Positions 18,299 to 55,209 of a DNA stretch of 64,000 bases are shown here, piece after piece. The stretch spans positions 28,229-92,228 of the forward strand of contig JAOADU010000056.1 in the NCBI GenBank assembly GCA_026417155.1. The letters run 5' to 3'. A program made the translations under genes and the position numbers. The notes under the pieces are model-generated. The model saw only the letters and a list, made by a program, of their open reading frames with translations, ran no database searches and was not told where the DNA came from. Source of the stretch: Bacteroidales bacterium (GTDB lineage: Bacteria; Bacteroidota; Bacteroidia; Bacteroidales; GWA2-32-17). Numbering within the stretch: position 1 is the first letter of the stretch; the number at the start of each line of letters is the position of its first letter.

Positions 18299-19972
18299 TT
18301 AAATCAAAGCAATACGTTGTAATTCGTTTAGGACGTTTTTATATTCTTCGCTTTTATTTTCACAATGGGATAAAGCATTGTCTATAAGTTTTATTTCGTT
18401 TAATATGTATTGAAGCGTTTGATTTTTGCACATATCAATTTGATGTATAATAATTTCTGAAAGATCTGAAATTAAACGTTGAATATTTTTTTCAACTTCA
18501 CGATGAATTTGTTTCTTAAAATGTGAATAAAAGAATTTTTTGAAAATAATTGAGGGGAAAACAAACCATAATAGCTCAATATGTGAGTCAAAAACACGAT
18601 AAACCGACACATCAGGTTGTTTTATGGGAGGGATTCCTGGCGACCATTCTAGTGCTGATAATTTTATACCTAAAATTTTTTCTACATTATCACTAAGGCG
18701 ATTATTTAGATGTTTAGAATATAAAGATAATCGTTGGGCAGATTCCTGTATTATTTTTTCAATTTTTATTTGCTCTTTTTGTTGTATATCTTGGAGCTGA
18801 ATAGTTAGTTCTGTTTTTAGCCAAAACTTAAATTTATTGGTTAGTTGATGCAAATTTCCTTTCCATGAAACAAATTCGATATCAAACTTTTGTTCAATTT
18901 TTGCGATAGTAGGTTTATAATATGATTCAAAAATCTGATTCAATGTATGGCGTACATTTGATTTTAAATCTTTTGATATAATTGTTAGTTCATACGTGAT
19001 GTGAGCTTGAGTAGTATATTCATCTAATATTTTTTGCTTAAGCAACTTTTGTTGTTCCTCATTTTTCAACGAAGCTTGATATGCTAATTCAAAATAGTTT
19101 ATTGTTTTTTGTATGATGTAACGCTGCTTTTGTTTACAAACTGCTTCAATGGTAAAATTGTATTGATGTATGATAGGTGTAATGATTTCATTGATGATTT
19201 GAAGATTAAAATATTCGGTTTTTCTAAATATCGAATAGGGAAAGATAGGAATTTCTTTATTAAAAATGCGAATAAGAGTTTGACTGATAAAATGAAGTAT
19301 ATCATTGATTTGAATCTCGTTGAAATAATCGGTTTTTGTGAGCAAACAAACTACTTTATACGAATATTCGTTTAGTGTTTTTATTAATGAAATATCTTGT
19401 TCAGCTAACGGCCTTTCGGAGCTAATACATACAACGGCAATCATTGTTTCAGGTGTCCAACTTTCAGTTGTGCTGGTATTGTTTTTAAAAATACTTCCTA
19501 TACCAGGAGTATCTATGATTCTGATTTGCTCAAAAGGTTTTAATTGCGGTAAGTAAATTATCGCAAAATTTACGTTTTTTACGTTTTGTGGATTTTTTAG
19601 TTCTGATGTATATTCTTCAAGTTGATTTATGTTGATTTCTTCTATAGAATTATCTAGAAAATGTATATATGCTTTTTCTTTTTCGCCATACTGAATTATT
19701 GTAATTATTGAAGTAGTGGGAATGACGTTAGTTGGTAATATATTTTTTCCAATAAAGCTATTGATGAAAGAGCTTTTACCAGCTTTGAATTGCCCAAAAA
19801 TGCTTATATCAATATATTTGATTGTTAAAAATCGTTGTAGTTGTTGAATATAAGCGTCCCAACCAGTTAGTTGATATTTCTCGGCAATTTTTTTAATATA
19901 CTCAATTGTTTCCACAAATATTTTATGTTTTATCTTCTTCGTATTTGGGCATATACCATCGTTGTGCAACAA
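18299..19972 (-). CDS. Bacterial dynamin-like GTPase
   Basis: G1 motif GQFKAGKSSFINSFIG, G3 motif DTPGIGS and G4 motif TKTD, followed by a long helical C-terminal region with a hydrophobic patch (LLWFVFPSIIF). The ORF-track start at 19972 is a TTG that overlaps the antiporter gene by 50 nt. An in-frame GTG at 19915 lies 8 nt after the antiporter stop. The gene is operonic with either start. Confidence 0.75.
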   Translation of the reverse strand: MLHNDGICPNTKKIKHKIFVETIEYIKKIAEKYQLTGWDAYIQQLQRFLTIKYIDISIFGQFKAGKSSFINSFIGKNILPTNVIPTTSIITIIQYGEKEKAYIHFLDNSIEEININQLEEYTSELKNPQNVKNVNFAIIYLPQLKPFEQIRIIDTPGIGSIFKNNTSTTESWTPETMIAVVCISSERPLAEQDISLIKTLNEYSYKVVCLLTKTDYFNEIQINDILHFISQTLIRIFNKEIPIFPYSIFRKTEYFNLQIINEIITPIIHQYNFTIEAVCKQKQRYIIQKTINYFELAYQASLKNEEQQKLLKQKILDEYTTQAHITYELTIISKDLKSNVRHTLNQIFESYYKPTIAKIEQKFDIEFVSWKGNLHQLTNKFKFWLKTELTIQLQDIQQKEQIKIEKIIQESAQRLSLYSKHLNNRLSDNVEKILGIKLSALEWSPGIPPIKQPDVSVYRVFDSHIELLWFVFPSIIFKKFFYSHFKKQIHREVEKNIQRLISDLSEIIIHQIDMCKNQTLQYILNEIKLIDNALSHCENKSEEYKNVLNELQRIALI

Positions 19973-21056
19973 AAGTAGGAATTACAGCACTGGCAATAAC
20001 TACTCCAACTAATATGGAATATTGTGTTTGATTGATAAAACCCGATTGCAAGCCAAATAGACTAGAGATTGTGCCGAATGTTAAGCCTGTGCTCATTAGT
20101 AGGCTAGTGTACATTCTATTTTCTTTTAAATATTTTGTAACAAAGAGCCAGATACCTAAAAATTTTGACAATATTTTAAGTGCAAATAATATAACAAACA
20201 TTGCAAATGCCGAAATAATTAGTGTTAATGATACTTTCATGCCCCCAACGATAAAAAAAACAGGTGTAATAAAAGCATAGCTTATAGTACGCAGTTTTCG
20301 GCTAATGATAACTGTTTTGCGTTCTTCTTTAAAATGCTTCGACATGAGCATTCCTAAAATAAATGCAGGTAATATGGCATGTTGTTCGCCTAATTTTGCA
20401 AGAAAAATAAATAAAATTAATATAGCGAAAATCAGTTTAATTTCGGGTTCGATGACTTTATTGGACATGGTTTTATTACGTAACAGGAATAAAGAAAAGC
20501 GATATACCAAAATTATTACAATGGTAGAAACTATCAAAAAAATTAGTGTATATTTTGTGGGTTTAATAAATAAAATACTAAGTGCTAAAGCTGTTCCCAT
20601 GTCGGTAATAAAAGTAGATGTCATGATAATTTTTCCTAAGAATGTTTTTGTTAGTCCGGTTTCTACCAATACAGAATAAACAACAGCAAGTGATGTCGTT
20701 GACAAGGCAATTCCTGCAATTAGTGATGCTTTTAGTTCCCAATGAAATATGTAGTATGTAAACAGTAAAACTATAATAAATGGTGTAAAAAATGAGAAAA
20801 AGCCAATGAAAAAGCTAGCTTTAAATTCTGATTTAAAAAGTTTAGCATCAATTTCAGTACCTGCTAAGTAGGTAAGCAAAATTCCTCCAAAATTTGCTAA
20901 ATATATCATCCATTCTTGAGGATGAAATCCAATATTACCCAAAATGGCTCCAAAAGTAATTTCTATGATGGCAACCGATAAACCTAATCGAATAGATATT
21001 AAACTGGAAAGAAAAATAACACCTGCAACAATTAACGGAAGTGCTTGTTCGTGCAT
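19923..21056 (-). CDS. Cation/proton antiporter (CPA2/Kef-like membrane domain, no RCK domain)
   Basis: 377 aa with about 11-12 TM segments. Na_H_Exchanger-type motifs are present (FGAILGNIG, LLTYLAGTEID, ALSTTSLAVVYSVLVETG, ITDMGTA). ATG at 21056. Confidence 0.8.
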   Translation of the reverse strand: MHEQALPLIVAGVIFLSSLISIRLGLSVAIIEITFGAILGNIGFHPQEWMIYLANFGGILLTYLAGTEIDAKLFKSEFKASFFIGFFSFFTPFIIVLLFTYYIFHWELKASLIAGIALSTTSLAVVYSVLVETGLTKTFLGKIIMTSTFITDMGTALALSILFIKPTKYTLIFLIVSTIVIILVYRFSLFLLRNKTMSNKVIEPEIKLIFAILILFIFLAKLGEQHAILPAFILGMLMSKHFKEERKTVIISRKLRTISYAFITPVFFIVGGMKVSLTLIISAFAMFVILFALKILSKFLGIWLFVTKYLKENRMYTSLLMSTGLTFGTISSLFGLQSGFINQTQYSILVGVVIASAVIPTFVAQRWYMPKYEEDKT

Positions 21057-21061
21057 AATTT

Positions 21062-21092
21062 TAACTCCTTTACATTTTGTTTGTAGGAGTTA
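21062..21092 (-). promoter_or_regulatory. Putative SD-sequestering hairpin, the expression platform of the fluoride riboswitch
   Basis: On the minus strand, UAACUCCU (21092-21085) is a perfect 8-nt complement of AGGAGUUA (21069-21062). The second segment contains a GGAG that lies 8 nt upstream of the antiporter AUG. Confidence 0.55.
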
Positions 21093-21130
21093 TCAGCACT
21101 ATTGCGGTTAAAGGTGAACTCCATCACCCG
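21083..21130 (-). promoter_or_regulatory. Fluoride riboswitch aptamer (crcB RNA motif)
   Basis: The minus strand reads CGGGUGAUGGAGUUCACCUUUAACCGCAAUAGUGCUGAUAACUCCUAC. P1 is GGUG/CACC, the pseudoknot is GGAGUU/AACUCC, and the short P3 is GCA/UGC. The conserved GAUGG, AACCGC, CUGAU and CCUAC segments are in the canonical order. Confidence 0.8.
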
Positions 21131-21141
21131 AATCCTTTTTG

Positions 21142-21149
21142 CAAAGGTA
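21142..21149 (-). promoter_or_regulatory. -7 promoter box TACCTTTG driving the riboswitch-antiporter-GTPase transcript
   Basis: The plus strand reads CAAAGGTA, an exact TAnnTTTG on the minus strand. It lies about 12 nt upstream of the first aptamer nucleotide. Confidence 0.5.
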
Positions 21150-21183: not shown

Positions 21184-22443
21184 TTATTTAACTTTGAGTA
21201 TGTCGCTCCAACGAGTAGTGTAGCGTGGCGATAGTTTTTGTTGTAATGTTCGCCATTTAAGTGATGGTTCATGCGAAGCTAAATGGATAGAAAAGTCGCC
21301 ATAACGCTTATTGATGTCATCTATAACGTTCATCAAGATATGCTCTTTCTCTTTAAATTCTTCAAATAAACTTAAGTTAATATATTTATTGGGCAGAAGA
21401 TTTGTTAATATAATACCTGCTTTTTTGATAGCTTGACCTTCAGGATATATTTTTTGAAGAGCAAATTTAGCGTATTTCGAAATTTCTATGCTCGAAGCGG
21501 TTTGAATAGGAAGTGTAATATAGCTTTGACGATAAAAAGGAACTTCGTTTTTTTTATGAAAATTAGAATGTATGTATATTAAAATGCTACTACAAAGCGA
21601 TTGTTGTTTGCGGAGCTTTTCTGCAGCTTTTGATGCAAAAGCCGATATACGTTCGTTTAATTCTTGAAGTGTTTTCAATTCTTTTTCGAATGTACGCCCT
21701 ACAGAGATGTTTTTTTTATCAACAACCTCATCGAGTGTTAAACATGAAATGCCTGTTAGTTCTTTTTTTAAACGTAATCCCTGAATTGTCATGTGTTTAT
21801 GTATCCAGGAATCGGGTAATTGAATGAAATCGTATCCTGTGTTGATGTTCATGCGGTATAACTTACGTGAATATTGTCGTCCAATGCCCCAAATATCTTC
21901 TACTTTAATCCATCGTAATGCTTTTAATCTTTTTTCGTCTGTATCTATCAGATATACATGATTAGTTTTATCGGGAAATTTTTTTGCAATGCGGTTAGCA
22001 ATTTTTGCTAATGCTTTTGTTGGAGCTATACCTATACTTACAGGAATTCCGGTCCATTGAAGTATCGTTTCTCTAAGCTCTGAGCAAAATACGTCTAAAG
22101 GAATGTTTGTCTGTTGTTTGTAAAAATCAATAAATACTTCGTCAATGCTATAAATTTCTATATTGGCACAAAAATTTGCTACAGTATTCATGACTCTTCG
22201 ACTAAAATCGCCGTAGAGTGAAAAATTGGCAGAAAAATATTCTACGTTTTCTTTTTCGATAAGCTCTCGATATTCAAAAATAGGGGCACCCATAGGGATT
22301 CCAAGGGCTTTAGCCTCATTGCTGCGAGAAATAACACAACCATCGTTATTAGAAAGCACAATAACAGGCTTACTATTCAAATCGGGACGAAATACGCGTT
22401 CGCACGATACATAAAAATTATTGCAGTCTAACAAGGCAAACAT
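21184..22443 (-). CDS. umuC: Y-family translesion DNA polymerase, UmuC-like
   Basis: The N-terminus [22 protein letters not shown] is typical of UmuC, and the length is 419 aa. It lies 2 nt downstream of umuD. Confidence 0.9.
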
Positions 22444-22445
22444 GG

Positions 22446-22892
22446 CTAAACAGCCTTAATGATGTGAGTTACAATACCCCAAATGATAAAATTATTGTCG
22501 GAAGTAATTTTTATAGGTTTAAAATTGCTGTTTGCTGGCATTAAATAACATTCGTTATTTTTTATATGTAGTCGTTTAACAGTAAATTCGCCATCAACAA
22601 AGCATACAGCAATTTTGCCATCAGAAGGTTTAATGCTTCTGTCTATGATAAGTATATCACCATGGTCAATATTGGCGTCTTGCATCGAATTGCCTACAAC
22701 ACGTGCAAAAAAAGTTGCAGATGGATTTTTTATGAGTGCTTTATTTAGGTCAAGAGGTACTTCGATAAAATCATCAGCAGGCGAGGGGAAACCTGCTTTA
22801 ATGGTTTCAATCAGAGGAATTTCTATATGCGAAGAGGTATCAGGACTATAAAAAGTTAGTGTATTGAGATTTGTAATTTTTCGTGCTTTCAT
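22446..22892 (-). CDS. umuD: UmuD-like S24 self-cleaving peptidase
   Basis: Ala-Gly cleavage site (IKAGFPSP), Ser nucleophile in VGNSMQD, and Lys in FTVKRL. Confidence 0.85.
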
Positions 22893-22900
22893 AAGGACAA

Positions 22901-24880
<1,980 letters not shown>

Positions 24881-30368: not shown

Positions 30369-31796
30369 ATGAGCAAAAGTCATATAGAAGTTTGGAATAG
30401 TTGTTTAAAAGTAATACGCGACAACGTTAAGCCTATAAGCTTTAAAACGTGGTTTGAACCTATTGTGCCGTTAAAATTAGAAAACAATGTATTAACAATC
30501 CAAGTGCCCAGTCCTTTCTTTTATGAATACATAGAAGAAAAATATATCGATTTATTAAGCAAGGTATTAAGAAAAGAAATTGGCGAAGATGCCAAACTTG
30601 AGTATAAAATAGTAGTTGACAATAATTTAGCATCTTCAAAACCATACACTATAAAAGTACCTACAAAAAATATTAGCGATTTGTCAAATCAAGATATTCC
30701 TATTCCTATTAACACAGAAGATAAAAATATTAAGAATCCATTTATATTACCTGGGATTAAGAAACTTAACGTAGATCCGCAACTTAATCCCGATTATTCA
30801 TTCGAAAATTTTATCGAAGGAGATTGCAATCGTCTTGCTCGATCGGCGGGTTATGCTGTTGCTTGTAATCCAGGAGGAACAGCATTTAATCCATTATTTA
30901 TTTACAGTGCAAATGGACTTGGTAAGTCTCATCTATCACAAGCTATAGGTATTGAAGTAAAAAAGCGTTATCCCGATAAGATTGTGCTGTATGTTCAGGC
31001 TCACAAGTTTGTTACCCAATTCATGGAAGCCATTCGCAGCAACAATAGCAACGACTTTGTTCATTTTTATCAAATGATCGACGTTCTTATCATTGACGAT
31101 GTCCACGATTTTGCTGGTAAAGAGAAAACGCAAGATATATTTTTCCACATATTCAATCATTTACACCAATTAAATAAACAATTAATTCTTACTGCCGATA
31201 AAGCTCCCGTAGAATTGCAAGGATTTGAGCCACGATTATTATCTCGATTCAAATGGGGATTGGCAGCCGATTTACAAGTTCCTGATTATGAAACTCGCCT
31301 AGCAATACTAAAAAGAAAGATTTACAACGATGGCATAGAAATGGCCGATGAGGTTTTGGAATACATAGCTTCGCACATTACCACAAATATCAGAGAAATG
31401 GAAGGAGCACTCATCTCTATATTAGCTCAATCGACATTAAATAAAAAAGAAATTACTATAGACCTTGCCAAACAAATTATAGATAAAATCGTTAAAAGTA
31501 CTCGCAGAGAAGTATCTATCGATTATATTCAAAAGGTAGTATGCGATTATTTTAATATTTCGGTAGATGCTTTGAAGTCAAAAACACGAAAGCGCGAAAT
31601 AGTACAAGCACGTCAAGTTGCAATGTATTTTGCAAAATCGTTTACAAAGAATTCGCTTGCAGTTATTGGTTCTATCATAGGCGGAAAAGATCATGCTACT
31701 GTTTTACACGCATGCCGAACTGTACAAAATTTGATGGAAACCGATAAAAAATTTAAACAGTACATCGATGAAATTGAGAAAAAACTTAAAATGTAA
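30369..31796 (+). CDS. dnaA: Chromosomal replication initiator DnaA
   Basis: Walker A (GANGLGKSHL), Walker B (IDDVHDF), and the domain IV DNA-binding signature (VQARQVAMYFAK, GGKDHATVLHACR). Confidence 0.97.
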   Translation: MSKSHIEVWNSCLKVIRDNVKPISFKTWFEPIVPLKLENNVLTIQVPSPFFYEYIEEKYIDLLSKVLRKEIGEDAKLEYKIVVDNNLASSKPYTIKVPTKNISDLSNQDIPIPINTEDKNIKNPFILPGIKKLNVDPQLNPDYSFENFIEGDCNRLARSAGYAVACNPGGTAFNPLFIYSANGLGKSHLSQAIGIEVKKRYPDKIVLYVQAHKFVTQFMEAIRSNNSNDFVHFYQMIDVLIIDDVHDFAGKEKTQDIFFHIFNHLHQLNKQLILTADKAPVELQGFEPRLLSRFKWGLAADLQVPDYETRLAILKRKIYNDGIEMADEVLEYIASHITTNIREMEGALISILAQSTLNKKEITIDLAKQIIDKIVKSTRREVSIDYIQKVVCDYFNISVDALKSKTRKREIVQARQVAMYFAKSFTKNSLAVIGSIIGGKDHATVLHACRTVQNLMETDKKFKQYIDEIEKKLKM

Positions 31797-54198: not shown

Positions 54199-55209
54199 AT
54201 GGAAAACAAAAAAGAAAAAAACGATGTTTTAAAAGACAAGCTAAAAGCCTTGCAAGCTACTATCGATAAAATAGAAAAAGACTACGGTAAAGGGTCTATC
54301 ATGAAATTGGGAGACGAGTCATTTGCTAACATTGAAGTCATACCATCGGGTAGCATTGGACTAGATGTTGCATTAGGGATAGGAGGGTATCCACGTGGTA
54401 GAGTTGTTGAAATATTTGGACCTGAATCGTCGGGAAAAACTACTTTAGCTATTCATGCCATAGCCGAAGCTCAAAAATTAGGAGGTATTGCTGCTTATAT
54501 TGATGCCGAACATGCTTTCGATAGAACTTATGCCGAAAAATTGGGAGTTGATTTGGACAATCTTTTTATATCACAACCCGATCATGGCGAACAAGCATTA
54601 GAAATTGCCGATCATTTGATACGAAGTGGTGCAATTGATATTATCGTTATTGACTCTGTAGCTGCCCTTACTCCAAAAGCGGAAATTGAAGGCGAAATGG
54701 GCGACTCTAAAATGGGATTGCAAGCTAGGCTTATGTCGCAAGCATTACGAAAACTAACTGCCAATATTAGTAAAACTAATACATGCTGTATTTTTATTAA
54801 CCAATTACGCGATAAAATTGGTGTTATGTTTGGAAACCCCGAAACAACTACTGGTGGGAATGCACTGAAGTTTTACGCTTCCGTTAGGTTAGACATTCGA
54901 AAAATCAGCCAACTTAAAGAAGGCGAAGATGCTACAGGCAATCGAGTAAAAGTCAAAGTTGTAAAAAATAAAATGGCTCCTCCGTTCAAGAAAGCCGAAT
55001 TCGATATAGTCTTTGGTGAAGGAATTTCTCGAATAGGTGAAATTATTGATTTAGGAGTTGAGTTTAATATTATTAAGAAAAGTGGCTCATGGTTTTCATA
55101 CAATGATATTAAATTAGGGCAAGGTAGGGATGCAGTGAAGCAATTACTTACCGATAATGCCGAATTGATGAACGAGATTGCTCAAAAGATAAAAGAAATA
55201 TTAAAATAA
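54199..55209 (+). CDS. recA: Recombinase RecA
   Basis: Walker [21 protein letters not shown], and L1/L2 loop regions. It starts 4 nt after the bcp stop. Confidence 0.97.

Follow-up and report, generated by a model that had tools for sequence, protein, structure and literature searches.

A 64-kb stretch of DNA from a Bacteroidales bacterium (contig JAOADU010000056.1, positions 28,229 to 92,228; hereafter the window) carries a fluoride riboswitch followed on the same strand by two genes, the first for a cation/proton antiporter and the second for a GTPase of the bacterial dynamin-like protein (DLP) type. The locus raises the question of why a GTPase of this type should stand behind a fluoride sensor, and whether it does so in its own right or as the partner of the antiporter. 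An earlier note on this DNA had taken the second view, reading antiporter and GTPase as a specific module for transport plus membrane repair or for regulation of the transporter. Here we report surveys of both gene families and an analysis of the locus itself, which together indicate that the GTPase family is, very probably, a fluoride-regulon gene in itself, with or without the antiporter beside it. The elements on which the argument turns are these:

21077-21137, minus strand: aptamer of the fluoride riboswitch (crcB motif; RF01734 at 57 bits, gathering score 34, E 3.7e-13)
21054-21092, minus strand: expression platform, in which the aptamer 3' strand UAACUCCU is able to pair with AGGAGUUA
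19923-21056, minus strand: RCK-less cation/proton antiporter of the Na_H_Exchanger/CPA2 type, 377 aa, PF00999, first gene of the operon
18299-19915, minus strand: bacterial dynamin-like GTPase (DLP), 538 aa, PF00350, second and last gene of the operon

Rfam, Pfam and open reading frame (ORF) coordinates agree that the riboswitch precedes a two-gene unit of antiporter and GTPase, as had been noticed earlier.

For the survey from the GTPase side, 33 aligned family members (alignment A1) were used as the query, with one genome per GTDB species, and the best 80 of 421 relatives' loci were kept. Because these loci were picked by protein similarity alone, the survey could not have favoured riboswitches. 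A covariance model (R1) made from 18 Rfam-confirmed aptamers was then run over all 80 loci. A fluoride riboswitch was present in 73 of them (about 90%); it lay upstream of the GTPase on the same strand in 71, across at least five phyla, and within 300 nt of the GTPase start in 52, the distance being typically 55-140 nt. The earlier note had assigned the GTPase to the fluoride regulon from the spacing of the two genes in the window, and the 73 switch-bearing loci argue for the same assignment far more strongly. By taxonomic group the loci were distributed as follows:

Syntrophia / deltaproteobacterial type: 47 loci, 45 directly preceded by the switch, 1 distal in a switch-led operon
Bacteroidota: 13 loci, 1 directly preceded, 7 distal in a switch-led operon
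Bacillota: 10 loci, 4 directly preceded, 4 distal in a switch-led operon
Spirochaetota: 6 loci, 1 directly preceded, 5 distal in a switch-led operon
Ignavibacteria / Chlorobiota: 2 loci, 0 directly preceded, 2 distal in a switch-led operon
Bdellovibrionota: 1 locus, 1 directly preceded, 0 distal

The GTPase is the first gene after the switch in Syntrophia. In Bacteroidota, Spirochaetota and Ignavibacteria it is found distally, in switch-led operons that also hold CrcB, DUF190, enolase or CPA2, and all distal cases are co-directional operons headed by the switch. Two of the loci come from cultured strains, Syntrophus buswellii DM-2 (L078; switch, then DLP) and Syntrophomonas palmitatica JCM 14374 (L066; switch, enolase, DLP). 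Since a distal GTPase behind the switch is the commonest arrangement among the Bacteroidota loci, the layout seen in the window is the normal Bacteroidota form. The leaders of directly preceded GTPase genes also carry recognisable expression platforms. In 29 of 46 such genes an AACTCCT...AGGAGTTTTTTT hairpin and a U-run end at the GTPase ATG, the leader pattern being ...AACTCCTnn...nnAGGAGTTTTTTTATG, with a hairpin that uses the aptamer 3' strand, then the U-run and then the start codon; the remaining leaders mostly show sequestration of the Shine-Dalgarno (SD) sequence, as in the window. Tandem aptamers within one leader were seen at L019 (1169-1228 and 1359-1420) and L145 (3064-3127 and 3190-3255), and divergent back-to-back aptamers with operons running both ways at L013, L016, L020, L040, L121 and L131.

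Is the antiporter a dedicated partner of the GTPase? An antiporter homolog lies within 6 kb of the GTPase in 15 of the 80 GTPase loci, where it may stand before, after or opposite the GTPase and usually has a riboswitch of its own. A second survey, from the antiporter side, was based on 14 aligned homologs (alignment A4) and covered 80 metagenome loci. A fluoride riboswitch was found in 61 of these, in 47 cases within 300 nt upstream of the antiporter, and the RCK-less CPA2 clade is therefore a regulon member in its own right. Any dynamin relative at all was present in 10 of the 80 antiporter loci, and none was found downstream in the nine closest antiporter relatives (53-66% identity) that have at least 4 kb of downstream sequence. 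Across both surveys, immediate adjacency in the order antiporter then GTPase was confined to the window, its close relative L001, which also has umuDC neighbours like the window, and the distant L160, a high-GC, unrelated locus that repeats the order switch, CPA2, DLP with a divergent DLP. The reverse order, DLP then CPA2, occurs as an adjacent pair in L044, L046 and L062. Surveyed from both sides, a dedicated antiporter-DLP pair is rejected, with co-occurrence at 15 of 80 and 10 of 80 loci and variable order and orientation, and the specific module of the earlier note is not borne out. That note had staked its proposal on conservation of the pairing across genomes; the pair is not conserved, and the riboswitch link of the GTPase is kept and reinforced. 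To judge from the two surveys, antiporter and DLP are independent fluoride-response genes that appear to be adjacent here by happenstance, not an obligate pair.

The DLPs met in the antiporter-selected loci L086, L100, L121, L126, L131, L152 and L153 are divergent, and these too are switch-linked. DLPs 25-35% identical to that of the window were observed in L121, L126, L131, L159, L160, L152, L153, L086 and L100, most of them directly behind fluoride riboswitches, and in some of them the G1 motif reads G[QA]FKRGKS[ST].

Clustering of all ORFs from the 80 GTPase loci gave the following tally of recurring neighbours:

Enolase: 27 loci, the commonest GTPase operon partner, typically in the order switch, DLP, enolase
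CPA2 antiporter: 15 loci
Prenyltransferase-like alpha-alpha-toroid protein (PF00432, about 294 aa): 13 loci
HIT-domain protein: 11 loci
DUF6062 Cys-rich protein: 8 loci
GGGtGRT protein with a 230-aa partner: 8 loci
CrcB: 7 loci
MutS-V pairs: 6 loci
DUF190: 5 loci
Unannotated pair of 315-aa and 233-aa proteins: 5 loci
UmuC: 4 loci, the window included, next to the switch
USP: 4 loci

The fluoride islands thus tallied appear, from their gene content and order, to be assembled from independent switch-led units and not around a two-gene machine. The PF00432, HIT, DUF6062 and GGGtGRT families and the pair of 315-aa and 233-aa proteins, all absent from the 2024 review of fluoride resistance, are candidates for further fluoride-regulon members; they recur beside the DLP in switch-led operons of L015, L021, L025, L027, L032, L041, L059, L068, L069, L072, L073, L076 and L080, among others. 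Two small proteins without a Pfam match were also observed directly upstream of the DLP, namely a helical protein of about 133 aa in Bacteroidota (L003, L004, L006, L007, L008) and a protein of about 74 aa with two hydrophobic segments in Spirochaetota (L010, L013, L014, L019, L071). These may be DLP adaptors or membrane anchors; the window operon has neither. At 10888-11112 of L044, a group II intron domain (RF02005, 186 bits) sits inside a Syntrophaceae fluoride island.

How, then, is the second gene of the window brought under the control of the switch? The RF01734 match spans model positions 1-64 of 64 and is the sole Rfam match within the window; under the purpose-built model R1 the same aptamer scores 59.4 bits. 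The antiporter ATG lies 20 nt 3' of the aptamer end, and AGGAGUUA is a Shine-Dalgarno-like sequence 8-15 nt 5' of that ATG. The minimum-free-energy fold of the leader contains the UAACUCCU-AGGAGUUA pairing together with part of the AUG region (-25 kcal/mol, z = -3.6 versus shuffles). The AGGAGTT is kept in L001, and pairing of this type recurs at homologous loci, there with an extra U-run. A transcription-terminator platform was considered for the window and rejected, there being no U-run after the anti-SD hairpin and a blank terminator scan between 21056 and 21077. Owing to the missing U-run the platform looks like a translational ON switch, and control of the second gene therefore rests on coupling or polarity.

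Directly 5' of the aptamer lies a possible promoter:

21142-21149, minus strand: candidate Bacteroidota -7 promoter element TACCTTTG, which matches TAnnTTTG

TAnnTTTG is the Bacteroidota/Bacteroides -7 promoter consensus, and L001 has TATTTTTG at the same place relative to its aptamer. As evidence the motif is weak, for the window contains about 0.84 copies of it per kb on each strand. A sigma-70 promoter scan returned 29 sites against 24.7 expected and was hence uninformative. The features kept in L001 comprise the candidate promoter motif, the aptamer, the anti-SD pairing, the GTG start of the GTPase and the tight junction between the two genes.

The junction itself admits two GTPase starts, both of which had been pointed out before. 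With a TTG start the ORF spans 18299-19972 (minus strand) and overlaps the antiporter gene by 50 nt, and a GTG at 19915 lies 7 nt after the antiporter TAA stop (19925-19923). The TTG start, which gives a 557-aa protein, was dropped in favour of the GTG on two grounds. The 538-aa product is 100% identical over all 538 aa to an NCBI 'dynamin family protein' of a Bacteroidales metagenome-assembled genome (MAG). In L001, the closest relative, the aligned GTG adjoins the antiporter TAA with a gap of 0 nt, and no upstream GTPase start is possible there because an in-frame stop immediately precedes this GTG. The GTG has no Shine-Dalgarno sequence of its own; given this and the 7-nt spacing, coupling of the DLP to translation of the antiporter is plausible in the window.

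The antiporter matches PF00999 (Na_H_Exchanger) over residues 14-362 of 377, with 134 bits against a gathering score of 26.2 and E 7e-39. Against the NCBIfam CPA2 subfamily model TIGR00932 it scores 108 bits, under the cutoff of 238.3, and is thus CPA2-like but below the curated threshold. Pfam detected no TrkA_N or TrkA_C (RCK) domain in it, and the protein ends 15 residues past the transmembrane domain, in agreement with its first description as a 377-aa antiporter membrane domain without RCK.

The GTPase matches PF00350 (Dynamin_N) with 82 bits against a gathering score of 27 (E 5e-23), and its translation contains GQFKAGKSS, DTPG, TKTD and LLWFVFPSIIF. The assignment to the dynamin-like proteins and the G1, G3, G4 and hydrophobic motifs given for it in the earlier note hold good; the length of 557 aa does not, as the GTG start yields 538 aa. 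Among 98 homologs the G1 motif GQFKxGKSS (GxxxxGKS), the switch-I Thr68 of G2, the DTPG of G3 and the (T)KxD of G4 are invariant or nearly so, and the same holds for a WKGNL motif and for the hydrophobic segment DLLWFLFPMFIF. The last of these belongs to the following feature:

18545-18622, minus strand: conserved hydrophobic tip of the helical trunk, residues about 432-457 of 538, ...PDVSVYRVFDSHIELLWFVFPSIIF, a candidate membrane-inserting paddle

The family consensus of the tip is PDISxxRxFDxHxDLLWFLFPMFIF, in which W450 and P454 are invariant. In an AlphaFold2 model built on the 98-homolog alignment (pLDDT 90, pTM 0.75) the G domain leads into a neck and trunk that are helical throughout (residues 233-537). 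The hydrophobic segment falls at the turn that joins the two longest helices (355-415 and 455-515) and that is made up of a loop (416-444) and a short helix (445-452). From its predicted place at the trunk tip we infer that the DLLWFLFPMFIF segment may bind the membrane. In a Foldseek search against the PDB the top match was IniA (6j72, E 6e-19), followed by the bacterial dynamin-like protein BDLP (2j68/2j69), Cj-DLP1/2, Fzo1/mitofusin (MFN) and SynDLP; the alignments are full-length (about 580-650 columns) at 14-17% identity, with a probability of 1.0 for IniA, BDLP and Cj-DLP. By sequence, solved DLPs match the GTPase in the G domain only. A named family was sought for the GTPase and none was retained, as NCBIfam gave only sub-threshold matches to DynA, CrfC, YsxC and Der, with 35.6 bits against a cutoff of 1600 for the DynA equivalog NF052648 and 23.1 bits against 1146 for CrfC NF007368. 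A profile search of 1.84 billion representatives, counted as clusters at the 50%-identity level, yielded over 150 full-length clusters with E < 1e-98, and 2620 with E < 1e-30. By these matches, the GTPase belongs to a large BDLP subfamily without a name, whose members are about 540-560 aa long.

The best explanation overall, and in our estimate a fairly likely one, is that the locus is a two-gene fluoride-inducible operon whose DLP is a fluoride-induced membrane-remodelling or repair GTPase. In the proposed mechanism, the aptamer 3' strand would pair, when fluoride is missing, with the SD-like AGGAGUU 5' of the antiporter ATG; once fluoride is bound, the AACUCC strand would be captured in the aptamer pseudoknot and the ribosome-binding site freed. 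The DLP, with its GTG 7 nt past the antiporter stop, would be expressed via translational coupling or relief of polarity. Upon entry of fluoride, the antiporter would be made for pH and cation homeostasis, and the DLP would bind the cytoplasmic membrane by its conserved hydrophobic tip, on the analogy of IniA, DynA and BDLP. GTP-driven dimerisation of G domains would then remodel or reseal the membrane, such that the permeability barrier and the proton-motive force are kept under hydrogen fluoride (HF)/fluoride and acid stress. IniA and DynA keep the membrane sealed or remodelled under other envelope stresses. Hydrogen fluoride is known to diffuse into cells at low pH, to acidify the cytoplasm and to drain the proton-motive force (PMC11139923). 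Membrane repair as the specific function of the DLP is put forward tentatively and by analogy, as a possibility that falls somewhat short of an even chance.

Several points weigh against this reading. Seven of the 80 GTPase loci have no detectable switch, and a rescan of these seven with filters off recovered no riboswitch; the sequence upstream is shorter than 2.2 kb in five of them and longer in two (3.5 kb in L009 and 6 kb in L039). The last, L039 (NZ_DAOOUJ010000087.1), is labelled as a Methanosarcina MAG and encodes a full-length DLP with no riboswitch in the 6 kb upstream, which could reflect mis-binning or horizontal transfer. Foldseek TM-scores are low (0.27-0.42), which would fit differences in hinge state and leaves the identity of the architecture unproven. 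The switch of the window looks translational, so that control of the second gene assumes coupling or polarity, and a TAnnTTTG match near the end of the antiporter gene, considered below, could be an internal promoter. There is, moreover, no established reason for fluoride to damage membranes, and the repair role is suggested by analogy. The anatomy of the locus, family membership, the riboswitch association and the expression platforms are supported by computation; induction, membrane binding and a fluoride phenotype of the DLP are predictions made from sequence and model.

Other explanations account for parts of the same evidence. In one of them, antiporter and DLP make up a two-component module of their own, the DLP serving to regulate, assemble or protect this one transporter. 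Such a module would fit the gap of 7 nt in the window and 0 nt in L001, the recurrence of switch, CPA2 and DLP in that order in L160, an unrelated high-GC locus whose DLP is divergent, the adjacent DLP and CPA2 genes of L044, L046 and L062, and the CPA2 homologs within 6 kb in 15 of 80 DLP loci. We give it a slim chance, however: 65 of 80 DLP loci have no CPA2 nearby and 70 of 80 CPA2 loci no DLP, no dynamin relative lies downstream in any of the nine nearest CPA2 relatives whose loci extend 4 kb or more past the gene, separate riboswitches and variable order are usual where both genes occur, and enolase, with its 27 loci, is a more frequent DLP partner than CPA2. Fluoride might instead act on the GTPase itself. 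MgF3- and AlF4- mimic the transition state of the gamma-phosphate and would lock dynamin-type G-domain dimers, and dynamin-family G domains do dimerise with GDP-AlF4-; the regulon could thus be overproducing a fluoride-inhibited GTPase, or fluoride-trapped DLP assemblies could serve as a scaffold or tether. The strict conservation of all catalytic GTPase motifs is in keeping with this, as is the fact that enolase, the classic fluoride-inhibited enzyme and one that is overproduced under fluoride (PMC11139923), is the commonest operon partner of the DLP (27 of 80 loci). We nevertheless regard such fluoride chemistry as unlikely, for stoichiometric trapping could not detoxify millimolar fluoride, and in two MAGs with paralogs (L022/L036 and L052/L063) both copies have a same-strand upstream riboswitch, which argues against a housekeeping copy with an inducible spare. 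The form of this idea in which the GTPase cycle is tuned to fluoride, so that MgF3-/AlF4- lock G-domain dimers and fluoride both induces the DLP and triggers its assembly on the membrane, seems to us more doubtful still.

The DLP of the window might also escape fluoride regulation altogether, if the switch gated translation of the antiporter only and the DLP were made constitutively by read-through or from an internal promoter. The window has no terminator-type platform, the umuC stop is only 46 nt from the aptamer with no terminator detected, so that upstream read-through is possible, and a TAnnTTTG match (TACTTTTG; 19970-19977, minus strand) lies inside the antiporter 3' end, 55 nt before the GTPase GTG. 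That internal motif is not conserved in L001, and at about 0.84 matches per kb per strand it is probably a chance occurrence. A GTG without an SD of its own, 7 nt past a stop, favours coupling, and in every co-directional homologous operon the DLP stands behind the switch, which argues for selection for fluoride-dependent expression; an unregulated DLP is accordingly quite improbable in our view. Lastly, the DLP could act on DNA or in cell division, like CrfC or Streptomyces DynA/B, in connection with DNA-repair genes of the regulon. The MutS-V pairs of six loci, the UmuC-like polymerase next to the switch in four loci (the window among them) and the weak CrfC match in NCBIfam are compatible with such a role. 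The CrfC match, however, reaches 23 bits against a cutoff of 1146 and is limited to the P-loop region, most loci have no DNA-repair neighbour, and the conserved hydrophobic tip together with the structural matches to IniA, BDLP and mitofusin points to action at the membrane, all of which makes this the least credible of the explanations considered, with hardly any weight. We retain, as the favoured reading, a fluoride-induced DLP that acts at the membrane.

Comparison with known systems places this DLP among proteins of related build and different regulation. The best structural match, Mycobacterium IniA (PDB 6j72/6j73; Foldseek E 6e-19 over about 585 columns), is of similar size and is likewise a single-chain DLP with a G domain, a helical neck and trunk and a lipid-interacting tip. 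IniA is isoniazid-inducible and is expressed from the cell-wall-stress-induced iniBAC promoter, that is, its expression is induced by a specific chemical stress. It differs from the window DLP in sequence (14% identity, with a sequence match, E 3e-18, in the G domain only) and in phylum; the window DLP has no IniB/IniC partners, and here a fluoride riboswitch is the inducer system. The DLPs of Nostoc punctiforme (BDLP; 2j68, 2j69, 2w6d) and Campylobacter jejuni (DLP1/DLP2; 5owv, 5oxf) share with it Dynamin_N with G1-G4, a helical neck, a trunk tipped by a hydrophobic paddle, and full-length Foldseek alignments, and they are the closest DLPs by sequence (E 6e-23 for 5owv_C and 3e-19 for BDLP). 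The window DLP, however, falls about 150 aa short of BDLP in length, is not one of two DLPs encoded together, and has a stalk unrelated in sequence to theirs; we know of nothing that connects BDLP or Cj-DLP1/2 with fluoride or with a riboswitch of any kind. Bacillus subtilis DynA, a DLP of membrane surveillance and repair that guards the cytoplasmic membrane during stress, is proposed by analogy as the functional counterpart. In DynA two DLPs are fused into one chain of about 1190 aa, the window DLP is not a member of its equivalog (35.6 versus 1600 bits), and DynA is not, to our knowledge, riboswitch-controlled.

With the fluoride regulon the window operon shares the RF01734 aptamer and its ON-switch logic as well as the antiporter, a recognised class of the regulon; elsewhere the DLP shares operons with enolase, CrcB, DUF190, MutS-V and USP. 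Known members of the regulon are crcB/Fluc, eriC-F/CLC-F, Na+/H+ antiporters, enolase, pyrophosphatase, HAD, MutS-related proteins, formate hydrogen lyase and chorismate mutase. Cation/proton antiporters had been named in the earlier note as riboswitch-associated, and Na+/H+ antiporters are indeed the second most common fluoride-riboswitch-associated gene class (PMC11139923). The same 2024 review lists exporters, Na+/H+ antiporters, pyrophosphatase, HAD, enolase, formate hydrogen lyase and chorismate mutase, and no GTPase (PMC11139923). In the literature covered, which did not extend to the supplementary gene table of Baker 2012, no paper was found that joins the fluoride riboswitch or crcB with dynamin, in agreement with the earlier note, which knew of no report tying a dynamin-like GTPase to fluoride. 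Dynamin is not mentioned in the text of Weinberg 2010 or in the first 200 of its 438 supplement files, and papers pairing 'fluoride riboswitch' with 'GTPase' appear, by their titles and abstracts, not to be relevant. The main caveat to novelty is that the supplementary table of Baker et al. 2012 might list such a gene among its minor categories.

As regards the surroundings of the operon, tblastn found no homolog of CrcB, DUF190 or another fluoride-regulon protein elsewhere in the 64-kb window, a regular-expression search of the window found no CLC-F signature, and Pfam no CLC domain among the mid-size ORFs scanned; the statement that the window has no crcB or eriC-F exporter thus stands. The genes upstream of the riboswitch are the following:

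21184-22892, minus strand: UmuD-like S24 peptidase and UmuC-like (IMS) Y-family polymerase, directly upstream of the riboswitch on the same strand

The aptamer lies 46 nt from the umuC stop, and the terminator scan between them was blank. Homologs of UmuC adjoin fluoride-switch units in other loci as well, namely L001 (Bacteroidales), L059 and L068 (both Syntrophales). The UmuC neighbours and the MutS-V pairs of six loci hint that DNA repair and fluoride islands are repeatedly associated. Homologs of gyrB (22901-24865, minus strand), dnaA (30369-31796, plus strand) and recA (54199-55209, plus strand) are also found within the window, whose GC content is 32.5%, and because of these the fluoride operon may lie near the chromosomal replication origin.

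For annotation, the adjacency of antiporter and GTPase is best described as a local arrangement of independent regulon members, and to read a module into it is over-interpretation. Bacterial DLPs are widespread, but for very few has the physiological trigger been established; a whole subfamily comes here with fluoride as inducer and an RNA as sensor, and with a defined inducer the function of the subfamily becomes directly testable. If the proposal is true, this DLP would be the first from bacteria to have a small molecule as its defined inducer. Should the GTPase prove to be tuned by fluoride as well, it would amount to a fluoride-activated machine for sealing or tethering membranes or for shedding vesicles; in the weaker form, membrane damage would be an unrecognised part of fluoride toxicity in anaerobes, countered by a riboswitch-induced dynamin. 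The finding is of relevance to anaerobic digesters, sediments, the degradation of organofluorine compounds and fluoride-induced lysis, the last recently reported (PMC12700350). The fluoride-switched DLP subfamily is apparently an undescribed membrane arm of the bacterial fluoride response. It adds a probable membrane-remodelling GTPase to a regulon that has so far consisted of export, pH and ion homeostasis and the overproduction of inhibited enzymes, and a membrane or envelope component of fluoride toxicity is therefore implied.

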